From Rozella allomycis CSF55 (taxonomy: Eukaryota): a stretch of DNA of 64,000 nucleotides. The notes beneath the pieces were generated by a model, which was not told the DNA's origin, made no database searches, and saw only the letters and a program-made list of their open reading frames with translations. Shown piece by piece: positions 7,368 through 61,728 of this stretch. The stretch is taken from positions 62,001-126,000 of the forward strand of contig KE561054.1 of the NCBI GenBank assembly GCA_000442015.1. Reading direction: 5' to 3'. Position numbers and translations under genes: made by a program. How positions within the stretch are numbered: the stretch's first letter is position 1; each line of letters starts with the position of its first letter.

Positions 7368-9691
7368 TTAAATGGAATTACTTGGATTAACTTTGAAAAG
7401 ATAGTCCGCCTTTTAACCTTATTGTGTGTTTTTACCAAAAAATCTACAGGATCCTCCGGTCTTACCTTGCAAACCTCAATCAAGGCTGAAGTAAGGGTGG
7501 GCATAACATTTTTCATCAGATAATGCCTAAGAGGAACTGATTGTGCCTCCAAGACTTCTTTTTCTTGCCTTCTTATGTCTTCTAGCCTTGAATTCCATTC
7601 AGCAACTGCCTTTGATTGTCGTTCATTCTCTTCTTTTTCTAACTTTTCTTTGTGTTTCTTTGCTTCTTCTTCCATCTTAGACTATTTTGAAGGCTATAAA
7701 AGTGTTTACTTTTTCTTCTTCCTCTTTTCGCCTTATTTCAATAATTTCATCTAAAGTGGGCCCATAATTGTGAGCTTTTCCAATAAACTTTTTTAAGGCG
7801 TTAAAAATGTCAGTATCGGACCCATATTTACTCATTTCAACGTTCAACACTGCAATTTCTCTTTCATCGAAAAAGTTCAATAGAGTGGTTTCGTCTGTGT
7901 TATTAAGACGATATTTTTCAAGGCTTGAGTTCACATCTTTTTTCATAAAAAATAAAAATTTACGCTCTTCTAATGATGCTCCTTGATTCATAGCGTTCTT
8001 TTTGACATAGTCATCTGTGGCATCCAGATGAATGACATGTTCTGGGCAAGATAGTTTGTCATATTGGGGAACATTTGATTCTTCTTTATTCTCCTCTTCA
8101 TCGAATGTGCCTTGAAAAAGAAGGCTAGCTTCTTCATTTGTGGTTGGAAACCCATCAAGAACATACCCTTGATTCTTTACGGAAGGCGAATACAGCTTCT
8201 GTTTGATAAATTTTACTAAATATTCCGAGGGTATTTTCTGATCATTTTTAATTAATGCGTTTTTATATTCCTCCAGCTCCTCTCTAGCTGCATCCCTTTG
8301 ATCATCCGCACCATCAATACCATCTTTTGGAGGACTAGTTACTTTCTTTTCCTATTTTACATGACGATTAATAGTTACAAGATTCGATACATGTTCTTTG
8401 ACCACTTCATCGATGTTTAAATAATTAATTTTGTATTCAAGAGACAGCAACTTTGAAAATTTTGTTTTCCCGCTGCATGGCGGTCCGTGAATGAAAATCT
8501 TTACTGGCCATAAATTCCAATGTGTTTTATACTCTTTAATTAGTTGGCCAACATTTTCAACAAAACCATTCTAGTTAAACTATATTCACAAAAATACTTC
8601 AAATTTCCAATCTAAACTCATTTCCTTTATTACCCCAGCGTCAATTTTTAAATTCATCATCAACATATCATAGTCTTTTTGCTCGAAGTGCTTTTCTAAT
8701 AATGCTTCTTCTTTTGGTGTGACATTCACAGTCCCATTCCCCAAATTATCCGCTATTGCCATTTTATACTAATTAATTATTTTACTTGCAATATTTCAAG
8801 GAGAGTTATCTTTGAATCATCGACAGCAACCACGTAATGTGAAGCGGGTTTGGTTTCTATAACTTCCAAGACGATTTGCACCAAATCTTGAAGATATATC
8901 ATCGGTATGAAGTTTGTTCCTTCTCCATAGCACTTTAATGGTTCAACGGTATGCCAAGCTCTCTGCAATAACGAAATTTTATGGTTTAACCTTAAAAAAT
9001 GAATGGAGGATGCTATCTCCACCATGATATATTAAACCTGGCGCAATTACATATGTCTTAAGCGGTCCTTTCTTTCCACACCTTGAAATATTTTTCTCCA
9101 AATTCAAATGATCTTTGAAATTGGGATGTGCTTTGCGTTTTCTGAAATCTTCTTCAGCCAAAATTGCATCAACCTCTTCAGCGTCAATTTTAGTTTTGGC
9201 CCAAGTTATTACAGAAGAGATACAAATAAAGATTTTTGGTCGCTCTTTAAAAAGATCCTTGTTTTCATTGAGAACTGTTGATTTAACGAAAAAAGGTCTT
9301 ACAGTCGATTGCAAATTGACATTCATCAAGATTTTGCATGATGTCGTATACAATTACATCGGATTCCATGAGAACGTCTTTTAAACTAGCATCTGTGGGC
9401 TCCTATTTCTCAAAATCAATTCATTCATGGTACTTTGAGAATTTTAAAGTTTGTGGGTGGCATGAACTCCTTTCTTTCGCAAAAATCATCTTCGTTGTGC
9501 TTCTCCACAACTGTCCCAGTAATTTTGTATGGAACATTTCCATCAGCGACGTCCTTTTTTATGTCCTCTTCTTCATTTAAATTTACTTCTGTGTCTTCTT
9601 GTGGTTTTCTAGACCCGACAATCGTTTTTGATAGAAGCAACCCTATGGAAAATGCTACTGGATCGTTGATCCTGTTTATGAAAACAGACAT
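7368..9691 (-). CDS. AK7: Adenylate kinase 7 (ciliary), with NAD-binding-like N-domain and C-terminal Dpy-30 motif
   Basis: [35 protein letters not shown]-loop [54 protein letters not shown]. Confidence 0.95.
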
Positions 9692-15831: not shown

Positions 15832-17531
15832 ATGTCCCTATTAACGGACAAACAACAAGAAGAATTGTAATTTTCTTACTATAAATCTATAAAGGAATCT
15901 TTCTATTTTAGATTACCTACACACACGGGGCTTTTCAGTTAGCCTTCACCGATGATCAATGGCTTATTAGCCACGATTACGACAAATTAACACAATTGCT
16001 ATATATTTGCTACGTTTTCTTTACTATCATCCATAATCAGCACATGAGTATACCTAAAACAGTAGAACAAACAAACTTGACTGGAGAAGATATGGAACAA
16101 TTAGCACACATTCTTTTGCCCTGAAGTAATCAACCCATTACAATACTACCTAAAAATAGATAACACAAATCCCTAGGTATACAAATGACATTAGACAGCA
16201 AGCACGATGAGACGTTAAAACNAGAGTTTCACAACTTTAAGCAAGGAAACCGGACTGGATATAGAGAAAGATGGAAAGCAAAGATATTCAGGCCTTTTGG
16301 AGAAAAAATGGATGTCTATTCTAAGACTCCAACGAAAAGTACAATACCTCCTTTCACTTTATTAGATAACAGATTTGGAATCTAAAGTTACGCAATTGCA
16401 ATCCGAAGTAGAATCAGGGGGAATGAAAAAGACGAAAAATAAAGTCGACTTAATTCCCAAACCCCCAGAAAAAATAACGCTTAGTGGACATAGAAGCCCC
16501 GTCACATTTGTTACCTTCCATCCGCGATTTAGTTATTTGGCGTCATGCTCGGAAGATGCTACGATTAAAGTCTACGACTGGGAAACTGGCGAATTGGAGA
16601 AAACACTCAAAGGGCACACAAAGGCTGTGCATTGTATTGATTTTGACCCCAAAGGCGATCTCATCGGTAAAAATGTAGAATATTTGTTATGAAGCAAGCT
16701 GTTCTAGCGATTTGACAATAAAAATATGGGATATGAATGATGATTACAATTGTATTAAAACTCTTTATGGTCATGATCACAGCGTGTCATCAATTAAGTT
16801 TTATAGTGGTGGTGAAATGATTGCCAGTGCTTCCAGAGATAAAGCTATCAAATTATGGGAAATTTCAACGGGGTATTCTGTTTCATAAATTTTCTAAATA
16901 GATTTTGCGTAAAAACAATTCAGGGGCATTCTCAATGGATTCGATCATTAAGCATTTCCGAAGATAACAAATATTTAGCATCATGCTCCTCAGATCAAGT
17001 AGCTATTAATTTTTCGTTTGAAAGACAATTAAAATTTGGGACATTCTAACTGGGGAATGCAAAAACGAAGCAAAAGGACATGAACATGTAATTGAACAAG
17101 TTTGCTTTCTCCCTTCGACGAGTCACACTTTTATCAAATCTTTGTGTCAGCTTAAAGTAAAATTTTGAAAACTTGCAATAAAAGAAAATTGAAGGACCCC
17201 TGCTTGTTTCCGCATCAAGGGACAAGTCGATTAAATTATTTGATGGTCTTTCGGGGCAATGTCTTTATACATTTGTAATATTTTTGATTATCTGATATAG
17301 AATGGACACGATAATTGGGTGCGTGGAGTGGCTGTCCAGCCGATGGGAAAGTATCTCTTGTCTGTTTCCGATGACAAGTCTTTGAGGGTTTGGGATTTAG
17401 AGAGCGGAAAATGTGTTAAACATTTTGAAGCTCATTCCCATTTTGTGACATGTATTGCGATCCACCCATCTGCCCCCTTAGTGGCTACAGGTAGCGTCGA
17501 TCAAAAAGTTTGCGTATGGGAATCTCGATAA
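15832..17531 (+). CDS. PAC1: LIS1/Pac1/NudF dynein regulator, interrupted in the LisH exon by a ~283-bp RT-derived insert
   Basis: [68 protein letters not shown]. Confidence 0.95.
15939..16221 (+). mobile_element. Degenerate non-LTR retrotransposon (LINE) reverse-transcriptase fragment
   Basis: One frame with two stops: [28 protein letters not shown]...MSIPKT...[20 protein letters not shown]. This matches the (Y/F)ADD catalytic region through the (Y)KYLG motif. It ends at an N. Confidence 0.75.
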
Positions 17532-17574
17532 GTAATGCATTTCAAATAAATTAATTTTATTGATAGAAAACACA

Positions 17575-18595
17575 TTAATTTCCAATAAATTCTTTTCCAG
17601 CCTTTGGAAAAATGACGCCAGGGTCTTCAATTGGTGTGGCAGAATAATCTTCAGAAGAAGGCAAATCAGGTTCTTCCACTCGCACGCAATAAAATTGCCG
17701 AAGTGCATTCATCGCCGCCTTAAATGTCTATCGAATAATGCATTTACACTTCTGCGCGCTTGCTTTTCATTTGGCGCGAAACCTTCACCAAGCTTTTCTT
17801 CTCCAGAGTAAACTCCCATAATGTACATGGCGCTTTCAGATCCTTTACCATTTTCAGCTAGAATTCATTTACACGACAGCATTCCTATTACCTATATTCC
17901 GCCCTAGGCTTTTGTAATCGTCTCAAATGAGCAGATAAAATACTATTAACGTAATAATAATGCTTTAATGGATTATAATTCATACTCAAACGGTAACAAA
18001 AATTATTCAATATAAATTGGCGGCAAGCCAAAGCCCCCTGTCAAATTCAATGGAAAAATTTTACCCTTTCCCAGTACAATGCTCCGATCAGTGCAAGCAA
18101 TGATTGACAAGCAATTGTTTTATCAGTCAAATAGTTTTTCTAAATTGCAAAACACGTATAATTACGGGTAATCTGCAAACAACTTTTTGAACACCGTATT
18201 TCTGTGCCACATCAAAAAGCACACTATGTGTATAAAATTCACCGATAGTAGCGGTCAATGGAGCCACCGGGAGTTTTGGGTATTTGAAATAGATGTATTC
18301 CGTAATATACATTTTCAGCGCGGCTGAACCCATATAAGATAATTTTGCAAATCTAGGTAATGAATAAAGGATAATTAAACCTTGTGTTTGAAGGATCGGC
18401 ACTGGGATGTATTATGGCGTCAAGAAATCGTTTAGGAGACAATTCTTCAAGACCCATTCTTGCTGCCAATGCGTGCTCAGCTGCAGTTAGGGGTGACGCA
18501 CTGATTCTTCCTTGAAATTCCAAATTATTTGTCATAGAACGTAACCGTTCTATTTGATAAAGTTTCAGTTTCCGATGAACAGAAAGGGAAGTCAT
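17575..18595 (-). CDS. MRPL3: Mitochondrial ribosomal protein mL44 (MrpL3), RNase III-like + dsRBD; start approximate
   Basis: AIIHPS, AKLSYMG, ITEYIYFKYPKLP, ALIGALY; dsRBD AEYR|ILAENGKGSESAMYIMGVYSGEEKLGEG. Confidence 0.88.
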
Positions 18596-26985: not shown

Positions 26986-27968
26986 ATGACTGTCCCAGAT
27001 TCAGTAATAGTCCATCCCCTTGTTTTGCTATCCGCTGTTGATCATTATAATAGAGTAGCACAAAATACAAAGAAACGAGTTGTTGGTGCTCTTCTAGGAC
27101 AATGGCAAGGAGGTGCTGTTCACATTACAAACTCATACGCATGTAATATTATGTATTTATTTATTATAGTGCCATTTGAAGAGGACGAAAAGGATCCTTC
27201 TGTTTGGTTTATTGATCACAACTTTCATGAAAACATGTACTCTTTATGTAAAAAGGTGAATGGTAAACTATTTGAATTGTCAAAATGATAGCAAAAGAGA
27301 AACCTGTAGGATGGTACCACAGCGGTCCTAAACTAAGATCAGCAGACCTTAAAATTAATGAGTTATTCAAAAAATACACTCAGGATCCAATTTTGGTTGT
27401 CATTGATGTTAAAATGCAAAGCGAAGGACTTCCTATAGACTCTTACGTGGCCGTAGATGAAATATCAGATGTAAGTATCGAATTATAACATTGATACTAG
27501 GATGGTACATCTACAATAAAAACATTTGCGCATATTTCATCTTTTGTAGATGCGGAAGAAGCTGAAGAAATTGGAGTAGAGCATCTTTTAAGAGACATTA
27601 AAGATTTGGCGGTGGGCTCCCTTTCTTCCAGGGTCACTGAGCAAGTTAATTCACTAAAGGGTCTTGTGACTCAAATGCAAGACATTGAAAGATATTTGGA
27701 AAAGGTTTTAAATGGACAATTGTCTGTTAATCACCCCATTTTGTATAACCTACAAAAGGTATTTAACTTGATGCCAAACACACAATCCCATGATTTAGCC
27801 AAGGCCATCACCACCACAGTTAATGACCAATATGCTGTAACTTACATAGCATCCATGGTTCGTTCAATTACTGCACTCCACGATTTAATTAACAACAAAA
27901 TTACGAACAAGGAAGATGAAACTAAGAGAGATGAAGTTGTGGAAAAGAAGACTGAAATGGTGGCTTAA
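26986..27968 (+). CDS. RPN8: 26S proteasome lid subunit Rpn8/PSMD7
   Basis: [52 protein letters not shown]. Confidence 0.97.
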
Positions 27969-33727: not shown

Positions 33728-34947
33728 ATGGAAGTAGACGATCACAAAAATGAGTGGACTACACTGGAAAAATATTTACTAGCGCAGTCTGTTTGGAAAT
33801 GTGGCGATTCAAATTGGGTGGCAATATCTAGGCAGCTTAAACAACACGGCTGTTTAGCTGCGCGAAGTAGCGACTTTTTTTCACAAAGGGTATATAAAAT
33901 AACATTTTTTATAACAAGAATTGCGCATCAAAATATCAGGAGTTAGTTGAAGGATTTGAAGGCAACANGTTGAAGGGTTTGAAGGCAACAGGAAAACTAG
34001 ACACGATTTTGCAACAAGCGGAGCAAATGAGCAGAGTAAGTTTCTTTGTTTTATGGAATTAATAGTAGAAGATTTTGGTCCTGTTGTTGTTCGGTTGGCT
34101 AGAATTTTATATGCCGAACGAATGAAAGAGATTAAGCAGTTGGTCGTGTGTATGGCCCAACTTTTCAAGGAAGAAGCTGATAGCTTAAACGCTTTGAAAT
34201 GTACAGATAAATATTCGGTTATTGAGTCGAATATAAAATCTTCCTTAGTTTTACAAAAACAGCTGACTGAATCGCCTGACCCAATGCTTACCCCTGACTT
34301 GGTCTTATTAAGCCTAAAAAACTTTTTAAGCATTGAAATTACCGATGAGTTTAAAGTCGATGAACCATCCAGAAAAAGAACGAAATCAATTGAAGTTTCA
34401 TTAGACTTGAAAAAAGCTAGGATTGATGTTCAACATCAAAATACCACCACTTCAGTTACTAATGAGCACGAAGTGCAAAACGCTGTTACCGTCAATGTCA
34501 ACGAAGAGGCCGAACTCCCCATTTCACATCTTTTTAAGAAAAAGGTTGGAAAAGGTTGGTCTAAATCTGCCATTGTAATGATAAATGAAATTTACGCACA
34601 TCGTTCAGCGACTCCATTCCATACTCCTGTAGTAGAAAAAGATGCCCCGAGATATTTCGAAATTGTCAAAAATCCTATTTGTCTGAACGAAATCAAACAA
34701 AATATCAGAGAAGGGGTAATCAATCACTAAATTTTCTTATTAGTCCATTTCCTCCATTAAAGACCTTCGATTTTCCTTGTCTTTGATGATCACTAATGCG
34801 CTGGTCTATAATGATCCAGAAACGGATGTTTATTATAAAGCTATTCAACTTAATGATTTTATATTGAATAAACTAAAAAATTTTGAATCTTTAGAAGATG
34901 CCTCGAAACGGTTGGCAGCGGAACGTAGAAAGAAAAAACGACAATAA
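33728..34947 (+). CDS. BRD8-like SANT/Myb + bromodomain protein (NuA4/TIP60)
   Basis: WTTLEKYLLAQSVWKCGDSNWVAISR, ARILYAERMKEIK; bromodomain PFHTPV..KDAPRYFEIVKNPICL...NALVYN. Confidence 0.85.
33946..33990. repeat. 22-bp direct duplication flanking a single N (assembly junction); copies differ by one synonymous base
   Basis: GTTGAAGGATTTGAAGGCAACA-N-GTTGAAGGGTTTGAAGGCAACA; GGA vs GGG (both Gly). Confidence 0.9.
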
Positions 34948-37266: not shown

Positions 37267-39464
37267 ATGGTTCAGACAACTGGTCAGTCTATCCGTGAGT
37301 CTGTGAATTCCAGTTTTGATATTTTGATATAAATGAAGTTTTGGTCAGTTTTAAGGTACAATTTGATCATGAATGCGTGAGGGCGTTTATTGAGTTTTGT
37401 ATTTCCTTTACTCCAAATTTCTCAATTGAACAAATGAATTATGGAACGACTGAACAGATCTTGAAAACAATTTTTTCATCGGATAACAAAAATATACCTC
37501 AAATTTGCCTAGATTTGACTACATTTTTGCAAAAAGCAGATTCTTTCCAGCTTTATAAACTTCTTCCAGTCCTATTAAGAGAATTTTTTGGCTCTCTGGA
37601 CAAGCCGTATCATATTTTCTATGTGTAACATAAGGGGATACATCAGTAGGATAAAAAATGAAGAAGAACGGATATCTTTGAAAGAATTTCTACGAGTAGA
37701 AGGCCCTTTATTTATCGCTTGCCTTAAGAATTTTTCAAACAGAAACTACCTATACCAAATTGATGGAGAAACATTTCCGGTAGCAATGCAAATATTCTAA
37801 TAATAGTTTCCATTAAAACATTATCTTATGAATCAAGAATTTGAGCTCGTTCCTCAATCCTTTTTGGCAAGGATGTCCAACACATTTATCATAGGAAAGT
37901 GCAACAATCTAGAGTTGGACATTATGGAGTTTTTTCTTTTTAATTTCCTAATATCTGTGAAACATATTCCTTATCTGGAAGTGGAATCTCTTAATTATTC
38001 CACAACGACTTCGGGGTTACGAAAATTGTCTCCTATGTCGTATTTTAAATCATCAAAGGTCTCAGTTCACAATTCAGATCTTATGGTGGAATTATTGGAA
38101 GAATATTTTGCCTATTTTATCGTTTGCGGAAATGAATGCCGTCTTAGCGTTTTGAATTCTCCCTTAGTTGTTGATATTTTTAGTGTGCATGTCCATCAAA
38201 TGATGGCTTCTGATATGATTCTTTTTTTGCTTGCCGCTGTTTCAGAATTTTGGCTTCATATTGAGGATGCCGCTCTTAGACCACCAGTATGATACGAAAT
38301 TAAACCTAATATAGAATAGGATAATTTTAAATAAGCGACTGATGCATTCTGTTAAACTGTTTATCCAGCATTTAATACAACTCGACTTTAATGACATGAT
38401 TCCGGGTTCGGCAACCTTAAAAGCGTAATTGTACCCATTTCGTGTTTATAGCTCTATTTTTACGCTTGTTCAAAGGTGCTTGTACCAATATTTTGTAGTA
38501 GCTTTTGAACATGCCGATGACGTTGAGTTTCCATTATTGACATGGGCCACTTATGCTTTTCCCGCCAACTTATCACAGGAGTATATCCATATGAACTTTG
38601 TATTTTACTCGGTTATTACACAAAGAATATTTGTTCATTTTATAAAACAATGCGAAAAACTGACATCGAGCAAAAAGAATCCTAATGATTTATTGTCTTT
38701 AATGGCCAAATTATTACATATTTTATCATCCAATGAAGCTGTTGTCGATTCGATTAGGATAAGTAAATTTCTTTTGTAAAGTGTAGCTTAGTGGAGGACT
38801 TTGCATGTCAACCTGGTAATGAAATTTCCAACCAAATATCCCAATTTGAAGGAAGTGCCTTTTACTACAAAAGATTTTTCGCGAATGAAGAATGCGAATT
38901 AGTAAAATTACTTTTGACGCATGTTTGGCACTTTAAGGTGCTTTTCAATGACGCGCAGACACAAATGAAGATTCAGGACATATTCAATCAAACTCAAATA
39001 ATTTTTCAAGTAATCACCCTATTTTCCAAATAATGTTATCTATTGAGGATATGGAAACAATAGAATTAAGCTCCTCGTTGATAAAAAAGTCAATTCCACT
39101 CTTTGCTGAATCCGAAAAGGGTTTTCTTACCCAGCAAGGAAAGAATCAATTGAAGCTCGGGGCTAGGAAATGTTCAAACAAAGACCTTGTTCCCCGTTAT
39201 AATGCCGAAAAACTTATAATTCAAACCCATGAAATTGCAATACTGGCTCAATTCCTCTATTCACTTTCCGAAGAAATCAATGGACGCGTAAAATCGAAAA
39301 TGTAACATAAATAGATTGAAAAATTATTAAAGTCGGTTGAATTTGTGGACTCTCGAGTCTTCAAAGTAAATTTACGACCCCTGGCTTCAATTAACTTTCA
39401 ACTACGAGCAGCCACAATAATTTTTGTTTCATGGATAGTTTTCAAAATAATAAATTTATTTTAA
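37267..39464 (+). CDS. SMPD4 (neutral sphingomyelinase 3)/NET13-like protein
   Basis: MEFFLFNF, SEFWL, TWATYAFP, NFVFYS, LTQQGKNQLKLGARKCS, THEIAILAQFLYSLS, VNLRPLAS, C-terminal TM. Confidence 0.75.
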
Positions 39465-42951: not shown

Positions 42952-45900
42952 ATGAGTGGACCGGAGACCGAGTTGAACATATCTTCTCCCAGAGACTATC
43001 AGAGAAAATTATTCACGTATAGTTTAAATAATAATAGCATTGTTTGGCTTCCTACAGGATCTGGAAAGACTTTGATTGCATTAATGCTTCTAAAACATTA
43101 TATAGTAAAGGATATGAAAAAGAAGTGTTTCTTTTTGGTACCTACAGTTGCTTTAGGAATTCAACAATTTGAATACTTGAATGGAAATCTTCCCTGCAAG
43201 GTTTCCTTTGTTTATGGCGGTAGAAATGTAGATCAGTGGTCGAGAGAAACGTGGTATACGGAGATTGAAGAACATCAGTGTTTTGTGATGACACCGCAGT
43301 TATTTCTTGATGGCCATAGACACGCTCTCATAGACAAGTCTTTGATATCAGTTGTAGTATTCGATGAATGTCATCATGCTGTGAAAGGGCATCCATATAA
43401 ATTAATCATGAATGAATTACAAGAAAATTTAGCTAATATTCGAATTCTAGGACTATCAGCTTCACCATCGTCTGCATCGACGATTGGGACCATCGAATCA
43501 ATATATCAATCAAAGATAATAATGCCTGATGATGAAAAAGAAATGGAACAATTTTCTCCCAACCCTGATGTTACAATTTGTAGTTATTCCAACCCACTTT
43601 TGATTGTGGAAACTCGTGGCTTGGTCGATGAACTTCAGTTGGTGTTGGAAGAGTTTGGATCTGGGGGTTTAAATATAGTGATTGATCAAATGATTAAAAG
43701 AAATATAATAAAAAAGAATGAGGTATCTAACTTTGTCTACCCAATGGAACCAATATGGTCTGATAAAATAATGAAGCTAGTTGACATACTAAAGGGACAA
43801 ATGGACAATGATCCAGCCTTTAGATGCGCTATTTTTGTTAAGAAAAGGTTGTATGCTGCTGTTTTGACTGTTATTTTGGAGAAATTGTTACCTAATGTCG
43901 TTCAAGCAAGAACAGCGATGGGCTTTAGTCTTTATAAACGAAAGTCGTCGTTTGGAACACTTTTCGAGGTGGATTCAGTGAAATCGATTGATGATTTTCG
44001 ATCTGGAGTAGCGAACATTCTAGTAGCCACTAGTGTGGCTGAGGAAGGTACAAAATTGTCAAAATAGTTATAGGGATTGATATTCCACAATGCAATGTTG
44101 TTATACGATATGATTTACCAACCAATATGATATCTTTAGTCCAATCCAGGGGTAGAGCGAGACAGAAGAATAGCAAGTACATTCTTATGTTAAACACTTG
44201 TATTACCCAACATAAGAAAATGCTAGAGAAAATACACGAGGAAGAAGAGGCAATGGCAAAAGCAGCCAAAGCGAATTTGAATGAGCCCATTAAAGAGTTT
44301 GAGGTTAATAATTTGTTGGATACCACTCATTTTATATCTGAGACCACTGGCGCAAAGCTAACTCCAAGATCAGCCCTACATGTGCTTAATCGTTATTGCC
44401 AAACATTGAGTAGCGACGGGTACACCTCAAACAGACCAATCATCACTTACAAGCCAGATAATGGACGTTATCTTTGCTCAATAATACTTCCTGCCACTTC
44501 TTTAGCTAATCTTGATGACTTGCCGCCGCCTCAATCATACTCTACCAAAAAGTTGGCAAAGTCCTTTGCTGCATTTGAAATTTGTAAGATTTTATACAAA
44601 CAAGAATATTTAAATCAAAATTTGCTTCCAGATATTGATGATTTATTGAAAAAGAGGAGAGAAAGAAAGATTCTTTCATCCTCTGTCCAGTTCAACATCC
44701 AAGCCTCATTTCTGAAACATCCCGCCAATATTAATAATGATAGATTTGTTGGAATACCAATATTTAAAAAGGATAAGAATACAGGAATATCAGAATGTTT
44801 ATTTTCATTTCTTTTGTCTTGCGATAATACAAATTTAGCGTCATCTATTTTATCCCAGCTGTCCTTTGAGGCTGATTCTTGCTATATCTACGGTGGATCA
44901 CAATTTGTATTGAATGATCTCTGTGCTGAAGAAATTCGAATAATTAGACATTACACCATTACTGCCGTTTCAGTTCTGGATCCTTCCATGAGAAATGGTG
45001 ATTATTTTGATCATTCATTGCCTTACGCTATTCTACCCATGCGTGGTTGTGAAATTGATTGGCAGAGCGTTTATTCAACCATCGCGAATTCCTATTGTAT
45101 GCCAATGCCTAAAGCAGCAGACACAAATGTTATAATCTTCATGCTCGTTAGAGGTGGTGGGAAACGATTCGCTATACTGAATAAAGTCTTGCCGGAAAGG
45201 GTAGACTCACCATTACCTGAAAACATGAAAATTGTTTTGGGGAGAGAAACATTTTATGAACAACTTTCTAAAAAATATGAAAATGTTAATCCAAATGATC
45301 TTCTTGTTAATATTTCACCGATTAACCCGGCAAATTTACTATCTGAAATGGAAATCGATTGTGAAAATTCAGAAACAAAAATGACGAAAACTAAAGCATC
45401 TAGTATTCTTTCTAAACAATTTACTTGTCTTTCCATTTGTTCATTATATCCCATTACACTAAATTTCTATCATCATTTACGTTTCTTGCCTTTGGTTATA
45501 CATGGATTATCATTCAATGCCGCCATGATTCAATTTCCTTTTAAAAATTGCATTTCCAATTATTTCATTTTACGAGAGGCCTTGACTGATTGCCACATTG
45601 ATCCAAAATTTAATTACGAGAGACTCGAGACTCTTGGCGATTCAGTCTTGAAATTCTTAACTTCTATTCATGTCTTTACCGAAAATCCTACAAAATCGGA
45701 AGGGTTTTTGACTGTCTGGAAAGATAATATTGTTTGCAATCATAATTTATGCATTTTATCTAAAAATAATCAATTTAATAAATATTTAATTAGCTCCAAT
45801 TTTACTACAGGAAAAAAGTGGAAAAGCCCTGGCTTTGCTACTGATAAACATGTTGGATCCTTTCGAATAAATGATAAAAGGCTTTCTGATTTGGTAGAGT

Positions 45901-46927
45901 CACTTCTAGGCGCTTCTTACATTGACGGTGGCTTTACGAACTGCTTAAACTTTCTTGGCATTATTAATATCTATAAAACATCAATACCTAAATCAATGGA
46001 CATTTATTATCAAAATGCTTATAAATCAATTTTATTTGGCAGTCAGGTAGATATATCAGATTACCAGGGGCTGCTCTTAGCCCTAAGCAAAGCTTTGGGT
46101 GTGGCAGAGTTTCCTACTGAATTTTATAGATTATTTCTTCAATCAATCAGTCATCCGTCTAATATTAATGGTACTGGATCTTTGCAGCGTTTAGAATTCT
46201 TAGGAGATCCTGTCTTGGACTTTACAATTACAGAACATCTATTTTTGCATTCATATACTCTATCTACCCTTCAAATGACAATTTTGCGTTCAAATTTTGT
46301 TAATCAAGTGATTCTTGGTCATCTCTCATTTGAACTCGGACTGCCTCAACTCTTAATACATGCAAACGAATCAATCAGCAGTATCAACGCCACTTTCAAA
46401 AAGGCTCGTAATTCTAAAAGTGTATTTGAAAAGCCTCCCATTATAAACGCAAAATCAATCAAAGAAGCATGGCTAAACATGTTCAAGCCCCCTTTGCCGC
46501 CAAAACTTTACTGCGATATTTACGAATCTGTTCTTGGTGCATACTTTTTGTCTTATGGCTGGGAAGCAGCAAAAGCTTTAATCCATAAACATTTCAAAAA
46601 GTTATTTGACTTATTTCTTCATCCAGATATTTACATACCGAGTAAACTATTTATCAATTGATTATAGGATTCCCTGCTATTGGTTATTTGGAACACAAAT
46701 TTGGCAAAGAATTGTTGCTCCATTTTTTTGAAGTTCCTTTGGATGCCGATGAAAATTGGGTTGTCACTAATATTGAATCTCTAAAAGCCTCTGAATCAAG
46801 GGGAGATAAATTCTGTAGCATTGGGTATTTCAAAGGAGAATTAATCGGGGTTTTCTTTTCTTTTGGTTGCAAGCGTGACGTGGAAATAGCTATATCTGTG
46901 TGCATAATGGAAAAATACATGAAATAA
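42952..46927 (+). CDS. Dicer (DExH helicase, DUF283, PAZ-like region, RNase IIIa + IIIb)
   Basis: PRDYQ, LPTGSGKT, FDECHHA, ATSVAEEGIDIP, QSRGRAR, LNRYCQTL, NYERLETLGDSVLK/SDLVESLLGA, QRLEFLGDPVLD/DIYESVLGA. Confidence 0.95.
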
Positions 46928-49687: not shown

Positions 49688-50987
49688 ATGTCTTCATTCA
49701 CCATAGAAAATATTGGCGGCATCACTTTTAAGGTGCCCGCCAGATATAGATTGATTTCAAGAATCGGACAAGGTGCATATGGCTATGTCGTGTAATTTAT
49801 TCCAATCTTTTTAAATAGTAACGGTTATGATCAAACAGCACATTCTTATGTTGCTATCAAAAAGTTGTCAAATATTACAACTAGCATAAACGACCTTAAA
49901 AGAATATACCGAGAATTGGAAATTATTAAACAGCTAAATCATGAAAATGTAACAATATATCACAACTTTTACGTGTCAGATACTTAAAGTAGACGCAGCA
50001 TTTGTATCGGAAAGTTACGCCAGTTTTGAAGATATATATCTAGTTTCTGAATTGATGGATATGGATCTACATCAATTAATTTCCTCCAAGCAAAATTTAT
50101 CTTATGATCATTGTATTTTTATATCTTATCAGATTGCCCGGGCATTGAAATACTTGCACTCAGCAAATATCATTCACAGAGATTTAAAACCTTCGAATAT
50201 ATTAATCAACATGAATTGTGACGTAAAGGTATGGTTCCTACTAGTAGTTTAATAGCTGGGTGATTTTGGTCTTGCTAGGGACTTAAATGTACATTTAAAT
50301 CAAGATGATAAACAACAAATGTCTGGATACATAGCCACAAGGTGGTATAGAGCACCTGAAATAATATTTCAGGTGAAAAAGTATACAACCGCGAGTATGT
50401 TCATGATTTGACTTTTGTATAGTTGATATATTTTCTTTTGGGTGTATTATGTTTGAAATATTTACTGGCACTCCGCTAATGCCAGGTCGAACTAGTACGA
50501 TTTTTCATTTAAACGGACAGCTATGCATCAAATAAAATTAATGATTCAAACATTGGGATCTCAAGATTTAGAAATATTCCGCACAGCTGAAAATCAAGAT
50601 GTACGGATGTATATTACAAATTGATCACAGATATTTAAAGTTGCTGCAAGCTTTTGTAATAATAAAGAAGAGCCTGGAATGAATAAACTTTTATTGTCTC
50701 TTCCTTTACATGCCAGAAACGTTATCAAAGGATGCCTAGAATTGAATCCGGACAAGCGATTTGATTCCAATGCGCTCATCAAGAACCCTTTCTTTCAAGT
50801 ATTTCATGATCCAAATGATGAGGTAAATGTATATTGATCAAGTTTTAGCCTTCCTGCGCCAATTATAAAATTTCTTCGGATATTCCAAATGATGTTACTA
50901 GATATGACATGAAGAGTAAGGTTATAGACTATTTTGACAAAAGGCCGCGTTTATAATCTTATTCAAAAATTCAATAAAAATTTGTAA
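49688..50987 (+). CDS. MAP kinase (p38/Hog1/ERK-like) with SGY activation motif
   Basis: [52 protein letters not shown] docking site. Confidence 0.93.
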
Positions 50988-61138: not shown

Positions 61139-61193
61139 AGTTGTGTATTACATTTATGTTTTCTTCTTTTGTAAATAAATACCCCGGCTAAAC

Positions 61194-61728
61194 ATGAACT
61201 CTATTCGCAATTCGTTATTACAAGCACCTTTGAAACCATCTTTGATCCATTTTAGAAATTATAGTCTTGTTAAAGATATTAAGACAGTTCCATTCAACAA
61301 GAAATACCTCCAAATGACTGAGCAGGAAAGACATGATTTAATGCAAGAATGGAAGGAAAAAATGAGAACAGACGATTGGAGAAATTTTACGATTGAAGAA
61401 AAACAAGAAGGTAATTTATATAATTCATGTCCACAGTTTACCTCTTAGCATTTCCATTGCCACCACCTGCAAGAACAGTCAACAAATTTACATTGTTGCT
61501 TGGCTGCGTTGGCGGAATAGCATTTTCTTACATATTAATGAATACAATTCAGTCTTTTGGTAAGCAGTTTGTGCCGATGAAACCTTAGGCAATGGAAGGC
61601 ACCGATTAGACACGCCAGAATATCGTAAACTCAGACACGAATGGCGTGACAAAAATGGTATTAATCCGATCTTTGGACAAGAAGATCATTTTATCCCCCC
61701 AAGATTTGACCCAAATTTGGATGAATAA
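61194..61728 (+). CDS. COX5: Cytochrome c oxidase subunit IV (yeast Cox5-like)
   Basis: Targeting-like N-terminus; MTEQERHDL...DWRNFTIEEKQEVYLLAF, one TM, TPEY...KNGINPIFG. Confidence 0.72.

Follow-up and report, generated by a model that had tools for sequence, protein, structure and literature searches.

The rule that introns of the U2 type end in AG is almost absolute. TG 3' splice sites have been verified in U2-type introns of 36 human genes, and in every case an AG is present no more than 28 nucleotides (nt) away; the sections of that study drawn on here conclude that splicing needs an AG at an early stage and may settle on TG afterwards (Szafranski et al. 2007, PMC2374985). Across fungi, GT-AG introns make up 98.7% of annotated introns, and flexibility is greater at the 3' than at the 5' splice site (Frey and Pucker 2020, PMC7072748); the combination GT-TG does not occur in the main text of that survey, the supplements being outside this look. 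Miniature introns of a size similar to those treated here are present in Microsporidia (Encephalitozoon cuniculi), to which Rozella is treated as a sister lineage (PMC6349667), and the sections of that article used here report no non-AG acceptors. The intron density of Rozella, given as 2.5 per kb in the portion of PMC8476143 used here, lies far above that of Microsporidia. Our literature search returned no paper that deals with the length of Rozella introns or with non-AG sites in them, supplements with possible intron tables lying outside that search, and the word "intron" does not occur in PMC5701793. Here we describe a 26-nt segment that starts with GT and ends with TG in the gene for the mitochondrial ribosomal protein mL44 of Rozella allomycis CSF55. 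It lies within a 64-kb stretch of contig KE561054.1, the whole of which was analysed and is called the window below.

The human TG-AG tandems and the Rozella segment share a GT 5' end, a TG 3' end and an otherwise normal donor. An AG also lies within the human 28-nt limit (PMC2374985), 8 nt downstream of the TG in mL44 and 7 nt downstream in a second, adenylate kinase 7-like (AK7) gene of the same window. The two systems differ in what that AG would yield. In human genes TG is always an alternative beside a used AG, whereas in Rozella the neighbouring AG shifts the frame and the TG product alone would encode the conserved protein. The Rozella introns are moreover only 26 nt long and belong to a parasite of the fungal lineage, and TG use is deduced here from DNA. 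Our results suggest that a U2-type spliceosome probably cuts after the TG at position 17866 in mL44. The features of the gene are as follows (positions are those of the window).

17575-18535, minus strand: mL44 gene, with an RNase III-like domain and a double-stranded RNA-binding domain (dsRBD), identified from its open spliced frame, Pfam matches and solved relatives.
18535-18381, 18352-18166, 18139-18065, 18037-17892, 17865-17748 and 17718-17575, minus strand: its six exons.
18353-18380, minus strand: intron 1, canonical GT-AG, 28 nt.
18140-18165, minus strand: intron 2, canonical GT-AG, 26 nt.
18038-18064, minus strand: intron 3, canonical GT-AG, 27 nt.
17866-17891, minus strand: putative intron with a TG 3' end, 26 nt, starting GTAAT and ending AAATG.
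17719-17747, minus strand: intron 5, canonical GT-AG, 29 nt.

The window is eukaryotic nuclear DNA of about 35% G+C that uses the standard code, with open reading frames (ORFs) of up to 872 residues and domains that include Dicer, PGAP1 and UAA-transporter. By homology, the gene is that of mL44, a protein of the large mitoribosomal subunit (yeast MrpL3, human MRPL44). A public protein, "hypothetical protein O9G_001243 [Rozella allomycis CSF55]", is 100% identical to its exon 2, and this exon matches the Pfam family Ribonuclease_3 (5.5e-07, 30.8 bits, cutoff 27). One public model of the gene, P0001, matches Ribonucleas_3_3 (44.3 bits), Ribonuclease_3 (35.7 bits) and RM44_endonuclase (27.6 bits, cutoff 27); its dsrm match reaches 21.9 bits, under the cutoff of 23, and covers profile positions 31-65 only. 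The top solved relatives of the gene product are all mL44 chains (6ywe_5, 5mrc_5, 3j6b_5 and 7qh7_c, from Neurospora, yeast and human mitoribosomes). The identity proposed in an earlier reading of these letters (the sequence-only reading) is thus upheld by both the Pfam domains and the solved relatives. Known mL44 proteins carry an RNase III-like domain followed by a dsRBD and the Rozella protein is built alike; it shows nothing unusual once 11 residues missing from the public models are restored.

On the minus strand the frame runs ...GCG GAA TAT AGG TAA, and the stop directly after ...AEYR is present just as had been claimed. The segment that starts within this string has a normal donor, a normal length and an ATG end: its GTAAT is of the local consensus type GTAAx, 26 nt is the modal length of local introns, and its last letters are AAATG. 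Removing it joins ...AEY and R, through the split codon AG/A, to ILAENGK.... The frame then stays open as far as the stop at 17575, with one further canonical intron on the way, and the product has 274 residues from six exons. These parts of the sequence-only reading, the AEYR/ILAENGK junction included, all stand. Beyond the TG end, three further features define the competing acceptors.

17833-17865, minus strand: 33 nt encoding 11 residues ((R)ILAENGKGSE), treated as intron in both public models and aligned with the start of the dsRBD strand region of mL44.
17858-17860, minus strand: TAG, 8 nt 3' of the TG end, the first AG at least 26 nt from the donor.
17833-17834, minus strand: AG, the acceptor of the 59-nt intron of the public models; AA in one haplotype (X4/X6, below).

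We tested the junction against homologues of mL44. The public 263-residue model served as query against 1.84 billion representatives and yielded 669 matches at E<=0.001. A profile was built from 33 single-stretch matches covering the dsRBD, chosen by eye from the top 59 of the best 150 of these 669; P0001 itself, fragments and two-stretch matches were left out. Because the query model is without the 11-residue segment, the profile is not biased toward the 26-nt removal. The product of that removal aligned ungapped to the profile with 197.2 bits, whereas the public 59-nt model scored 163.4 bits (33.8 bits lower) with an 11-residue deletion exactly at the junction. The 11 columns of the restored residues are ungapped in all 33 homologues. 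We then scored every in-frame, stop-free removal starting at 17900-17887 and ending at 17868-17826 (n=158). Three equivalent registers of the 26-nt removal (GG..AT, GT..TG and TA..GA), all of which give the same protein, rank first of the 158. The best removals that end in AG have non-GT starts: AA..AG of 32 nt (185.2 bits), GG..AG of 35 nt (180.6 bits) and AT..AG of 38 nt (180.3 bits). The first rank among 158 removals and the 33 ungapped homologues bear out the claim that a colinear mL44 mRNA requires the removal of exactly 26 nt.

The 33 nt between the TG end and the AG at 59 nt were also shuffled. None of 1000 open shuffles, obtained from 2863 drawn, reached 197.2 bits (mean 175.6, standard deviation 4.3, maximum 189.2). 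Judged by these scores, the 33 nt after the TG are coding in nature. Exon 5 aligns ungapped, from its first or second residue, to residues 258-293 of the yeast chain 5mrc_5 and 356-392 of the Neurospora chain 6ywe_5; the likeness to yeast MrpL3 given in the sequence-only reading is borne out by the alignment to 5mrc_5 from residue 2. Relatives closer than 34-50% identity were not found in the best 150 of the 669 matches among the 1.84 billion representatives, and none of 81 metagenome stretches that matched the pattern was confirmed.

A second gene in the window presents the same configuration.

8760-8785, minus strand: 26-nt segment in an AK7-like gene, starting GTAAA and ending AAATG.

The exons flanking this segment match the Pfam families Epimerase (end of the domain), Hydin_ADK/ADK and Dpy-30. 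Both public models of the gene (P0151 and P0153) use a 17-nt GT-AG intron (8785 to 8769), which is 9 nt under the shortest of 46 introns collected in the window, and thereby gain three extra residues (YKM). These residues are absent from all 11 homologues, whose sources include, by their names, a chytrid, a rotifer, a lungfish and a beetle. Only the 26-nt removal is colinear with the 11 homologues, and it scores 150.5 bits against their profile versus 142.4 bits for the 17-nt removal. The first AG at least 26 nt from the donor lies at 33 nt, 7 nt 3' of the TG; it is out of frame and leads to a stop after 8 codons. The genomic ATG is translated as M in both public models. mL44 and AK7 are therefore two independent genes whose segments agree in length and in their last five letters, and both need the removal.

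We collected 46 GT-AG introns from the window, retaining those with open and coding-like flanks, allowing lengths of 20-36 nt and preferring GTA donors, so that the outer length limits of the set are partly built in by selection. Their lengths are 26 nt (19 introns), 27 nt (8), 28 nt (11), 29 nt (5), 30 nt (1) and 31 nt (2), and 26 nt is both mode and minimum. The donor begins with GTAA in 35 of the 46, and GTAAT, found in eight, is the second commonest 5-mer. The AG that is used is the first AG at least 26 nt from the donor in every one of the 46. Within these introns there are 18 earlier AGs, at distances that would make introns of 8-24 nt; 16 of the 18 are unusable because they are out of frame or lead to a stop. 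In the 26-nt class (19 introns), A occupies position 23 in 16 cases, position 24 holds T (10) or A (7), and positions 25 and 26 are A and G without exception. The mL44 segment agrees with this consensus at positions 23, 24 and 26; its single departure is a T at position 25. When the 19 introns are aligned no internal A is fixed; only position 23 is mostly A, as it also is in the mL44 segment. No clear branch-point motif is visible across the 46 introns. Introns of 26 nt are also seen in a Dicer-like gene at 42952-46925 (plus strand; helicase, Dicer dimerisation domain and two RNase III domains), at 44048-44073 and 46642-46667, the former with an in-frame AG at 20 nt as an alternative.

Public sequencing runs were used to examine the TG itself. 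Logan contigs of the four runs examined, from four studies and all DNA (X1, X4, X6 and X8; contig depths 239.8, 158.5, 462.4 and 3.1), carry plus-strand CAT unchanged at 17866-17868. Over 17560-18560 all four follow the window colinearly and contain neither indels nor joints. X1 shows no difference from the window; it may have been the source of these letters and would then not be independent. The TG end is unchanged in three haplotypes that differ elsewhere and is therefore not a base-call swap; the genomic TG is real DNA. The sequence-only reading had asked for the genomic ATG to be confirmed in raw reads or by Sanger sequencing; at the level of contigs it is unchanged, and the TAG that a swap would have hidden was not seen.

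The same contigs revealed at least three haplotypes over 17560-18560, about 0.5-0.6% apart. X4 and X6 share six differences from the window, and X8 has five others, one of them within the 26-nt segment (17879). The reference type and the X4/X6 type both occur in runs of one sample (X2 and X4 of S2), which suggests heterozygosity or a mixed culture. One of the X4/X6 differences, 17833 C>T on the plus strand, turns the AG of the 59-nt intron into AA (depths 158.5 and 462.4). In the 26-nt model the same single-nucleotide polymorphism reads S199N, in a column that is variable among homologues (A, S, T, N and others).

Several observations weigh against splicing at the TG or against a constrained gene. 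No branch-point motif could be placed in the mL44 segment, whose internal A residues lie only at positions 3, 4, 6, 9, 10 and 22-24. No RNA run covering the stretch was found among the 15 sequencing runs listed; nine cover it and all nine are marked "DNA?". The X4/X6 haplotype carries four amino-acid changes versus one silent site in the coding sequence. In X8, 17808 G>T (plus strand) turns mL44 codon 207 from TAC into the nonsense codon TAA. We take this change to be probably an error, because the depth of X8 is 3.1 and three of its five changes are G>T; if real, the mL44 gene would be dispensable in that genome. A crude scan of the window found no excess of TG among non-AG candidate ends at 26-31 nt (26 of 517). 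In the sections of the human study used here, TG is "never the sole 3' splice site", and mutants with AG>TG switched to AGs nearby instead of using the TG (PMC2374985). Finally, both public mL44 models (P0001 and P0152, 263 residues each) use a 59-nt intron and omit the 11 residues, and the first-AG rule of the local introns predicts a 34-nt, out-of-frame product at mL44. The latter is the main mechanistic point against the TG acceptor, or else an argument for a TG-AG tandem. These last two observations each define an alternative explanation.

The first alternative is that the public models are right. The AG at 59 nt (17834-17833, intron 17891 to 17833 from the same donor) would then be used, the protein would be without the 11 residues, and the 33 nt would appear coding-like since the original acceptor was lost recently, from AG to TG, and they have not yet decayed. 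This intron is the sole GT-AG, in-frame and stop-free solution, two annotations have chosen it, and the human AG>TG mutants turned to neighbouring AGs in the same manner. The sequence-only reading was thus wrong that no in-frame AG lies nearby, and its term "obligatory" cannot be sustained by open-frame logic alone, since the 59-nt alternative is open; the 26-nt intron is required if the 11 conserved residues are to be kept. The 59-nt intron would delete residues that are kept in 33 of 33 homologues, at the cost of the 33.8 bits given above. It is about twice as long as the longest of the 46 local introns and, as none of these exceeds 31 nt, it would be an outlier. In the X4/X6 haplotype, seen at high depth, its acceptor reads AA; the out-of-frame AG at 34 nt sits before it, and the 59-nt intron leaves the AK7 case unexplained. 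P0152, a model seen as protein, carries upstream the X4/X6 amino-acid changes F7L, T93A and S95N yet has the same 263-residue junction. Overall, we consider the 59-nt intron an unlikely solution.

An equally improbable alternative is that only the first AG beyond 26 nt is used. The resulting 34-nt intron, ending at the TAG at 17858-17860, is out of frame and gives AGC TGA, as the sequence-only reading had it, and a length of 34 nt is absent from the 158 in-frame, stop-free removals. The outcome would be a truncated mL44 without the dsRBD or a degraded transcript, with the downstream exons untranslated. All 46 canonical introns follow the first-AG rule, and A22-A24 of the segment would precede this AG by 10-12 nt. 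On the other hand, 87 downstream codons are open, and the downstream exons are connected by a canonical 29-nt intron and match the dsRBD of homologues ungapped. Applied to AK7, the rule would end translation after 8 codons, before the intact ADK and Dpy-30 domains are reached. The 34-nt product may coexist with the TG product.

Other non-canonical routes are less probable still. These comprise a GG..AG intron of 35 nt or an AA..AG intron of 32 nt to the TAG, splicing at 34 nt followed by a +1 ribosomal frameshift at AGC-TGA, and translational bypass. They keep an AG acceptor and their products are open, at 180.6-185.2 bits. They nonetheless fall 12-17 bits below the 26-nt removal, need deletions of 2-3 residues and require a non-GT donor despite the consensus GTAAT at that place, and none of them explains AK7. 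At mL44 a single frameshift without splicing is impossible, as all three frames close in turn: the one used upstream ends at TAA (17890-17888), and the one used downstream becomes open only past TGA (17867-17865).

Elements of other kinds were considered for the segment and rejected. U12-type introns have an extended, highly conserved 5' splice site and conserved branch-site motifs, and the segment starts GTAATAGG, an ordinary local donor of the U2 type. A 26-nt unconventional intron of the IRE1/XBP1 type was discarded on reading the sequence, as the ends are a normal donor GTAAT and AAATG and the loop motif is absent. A TA-bounded eliminated sequence of a ciliate germline would have a TA repeat 26 nt apart, which the segment is without, and the organism is a fungus. 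A ciliate-type code with TAA and TAG as sense codons is discounted by the ORFs of up to 872 residues with good Pfam domains under the standard code. The least probable explanation of all is a sequence or assembly error that hides an AG or an indel at the segment end: the assembly is imperfect, with three single Ns in the window, yet the contigs of four of four runs from four studies agree across three haplotypes (with X1 as the possible source of the window) and the ATG of AK7 is translated as M in both public models.

We return to splicing at the TG. The segment 17891 to 17866 would be a mini-intron removed by the spliceosome, of the kind standard in this window except that its 3' end is TG: an ordinary 26-nt intron after a single A-to-T change at the second-last position, with the last G kept. 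In structures of post-catalytic spliceosomes the last G of the intron pairs with the first G, and a change of the second-last base would then be the mildest. Only the mRNA spliced at the TG would encode a complete mL44, its dsRBD intact. The out-of-frame TAG 8 nt downstream may help to define the intron, as in human TG-AG tandems, a role that we infer for the downstream AG; this TAG, at 34 nt, may also be used and would then give rise to an unproductive mRNA. A broader proposition is tentative, and we hold it with more doubt than conviction: that (A)ATG serves the Rozella spliceosome as a constitutive 3' splice site at the shortest distance, 26 nt, to which its introns are pinned as a minimum, and that a few percent of introns are true GT-TG introns (2 beside 46 canonical ones in 64 kb), some of them in conserved housekeeping genes whose sole productive mRNA is the TG product.

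The sequence-only reading had also described the TG end as a pattern repeated across the window. This is correct for a second gene, AK7, which was tested by homology, and does not hold as a general enrichment, given the share of TG among non-AG ends reported above. The crude scan covered 573 GTA donors, 316 of them without an in-frame AG at 18-45 nt, and about 35 further rows ending in TG were judged solely by the look of their translations. Several candidates were rejected individually. Those at 39010-39035 (plus strand) and 63560-63538 (minus strand) lie inside continuous ORFs, and that at 36562-36531 (minus strand) lies within a continuous LIM-like ORF. The candidate at 50381-50405 (plus strand) is explained by a canonical 28-nt intron at 50395-50422, the one at 61171-61196 (plus strand) is a gene end followed by a start codon, and those at 27475 and 1042 are decoys next to canonical introns. 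Inside the longer introns, TG ends at a distance of at least 26 nt were found 0 times versus 5 at position 25, which is not significant with about 32 positions available. The pattern is based on the two homology-tested cases and not on a general enrichment.

A GTAAGT at 34036 (plus strand) was likewise rejected as the start of an intron, being better explained by a frame error at an N at 33968. This N (region 33900-34110, plus strand) is flanked on either side by a copy of a 22-nt tandem unit, VEGFEGN being encoded twice, and the reading frame changes there; the gene around it has a SANT/Myb-like start. An ambiguity of the assembly seems to fit this place better than a non-canonical intron. 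The two further single Ns of the window are at 16222 and 55253.

As a kind, TG acceptors are already known from human genes. The novelty would lie in one whose product is the sole productive mRNA, in conserved genes and in a genome of 26-31-nt introns. Both public mL44 models (11 residues short) and both public AK7 models (3 residues too many) are probably wrong at these junctions. Annotation pipelines limited to GT-AG will repeat such errors across the Rozella genome. The fungal survey, in the portion used here, relies on annotations (PMC7072748), and those of Rozella avoid the TG by way of 59-nt and 17-nt GT-AG introns. If transcripts confirm our reading, two conserved genes would have a TG-derived mRNA as their only productive one. 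It would then follow that the second catalytic step can rely constitutively on TG when the intron geometry is held to 26 nt, and Rozella would offer a natural system for studying the choice of 3' splice sites by distance. Were the broader proposition of a constitutive (A)ATG site to be true, this would be the first constitutive GT-TG intron class, and the current Rozella gene models would be systematically wrong at such sites.

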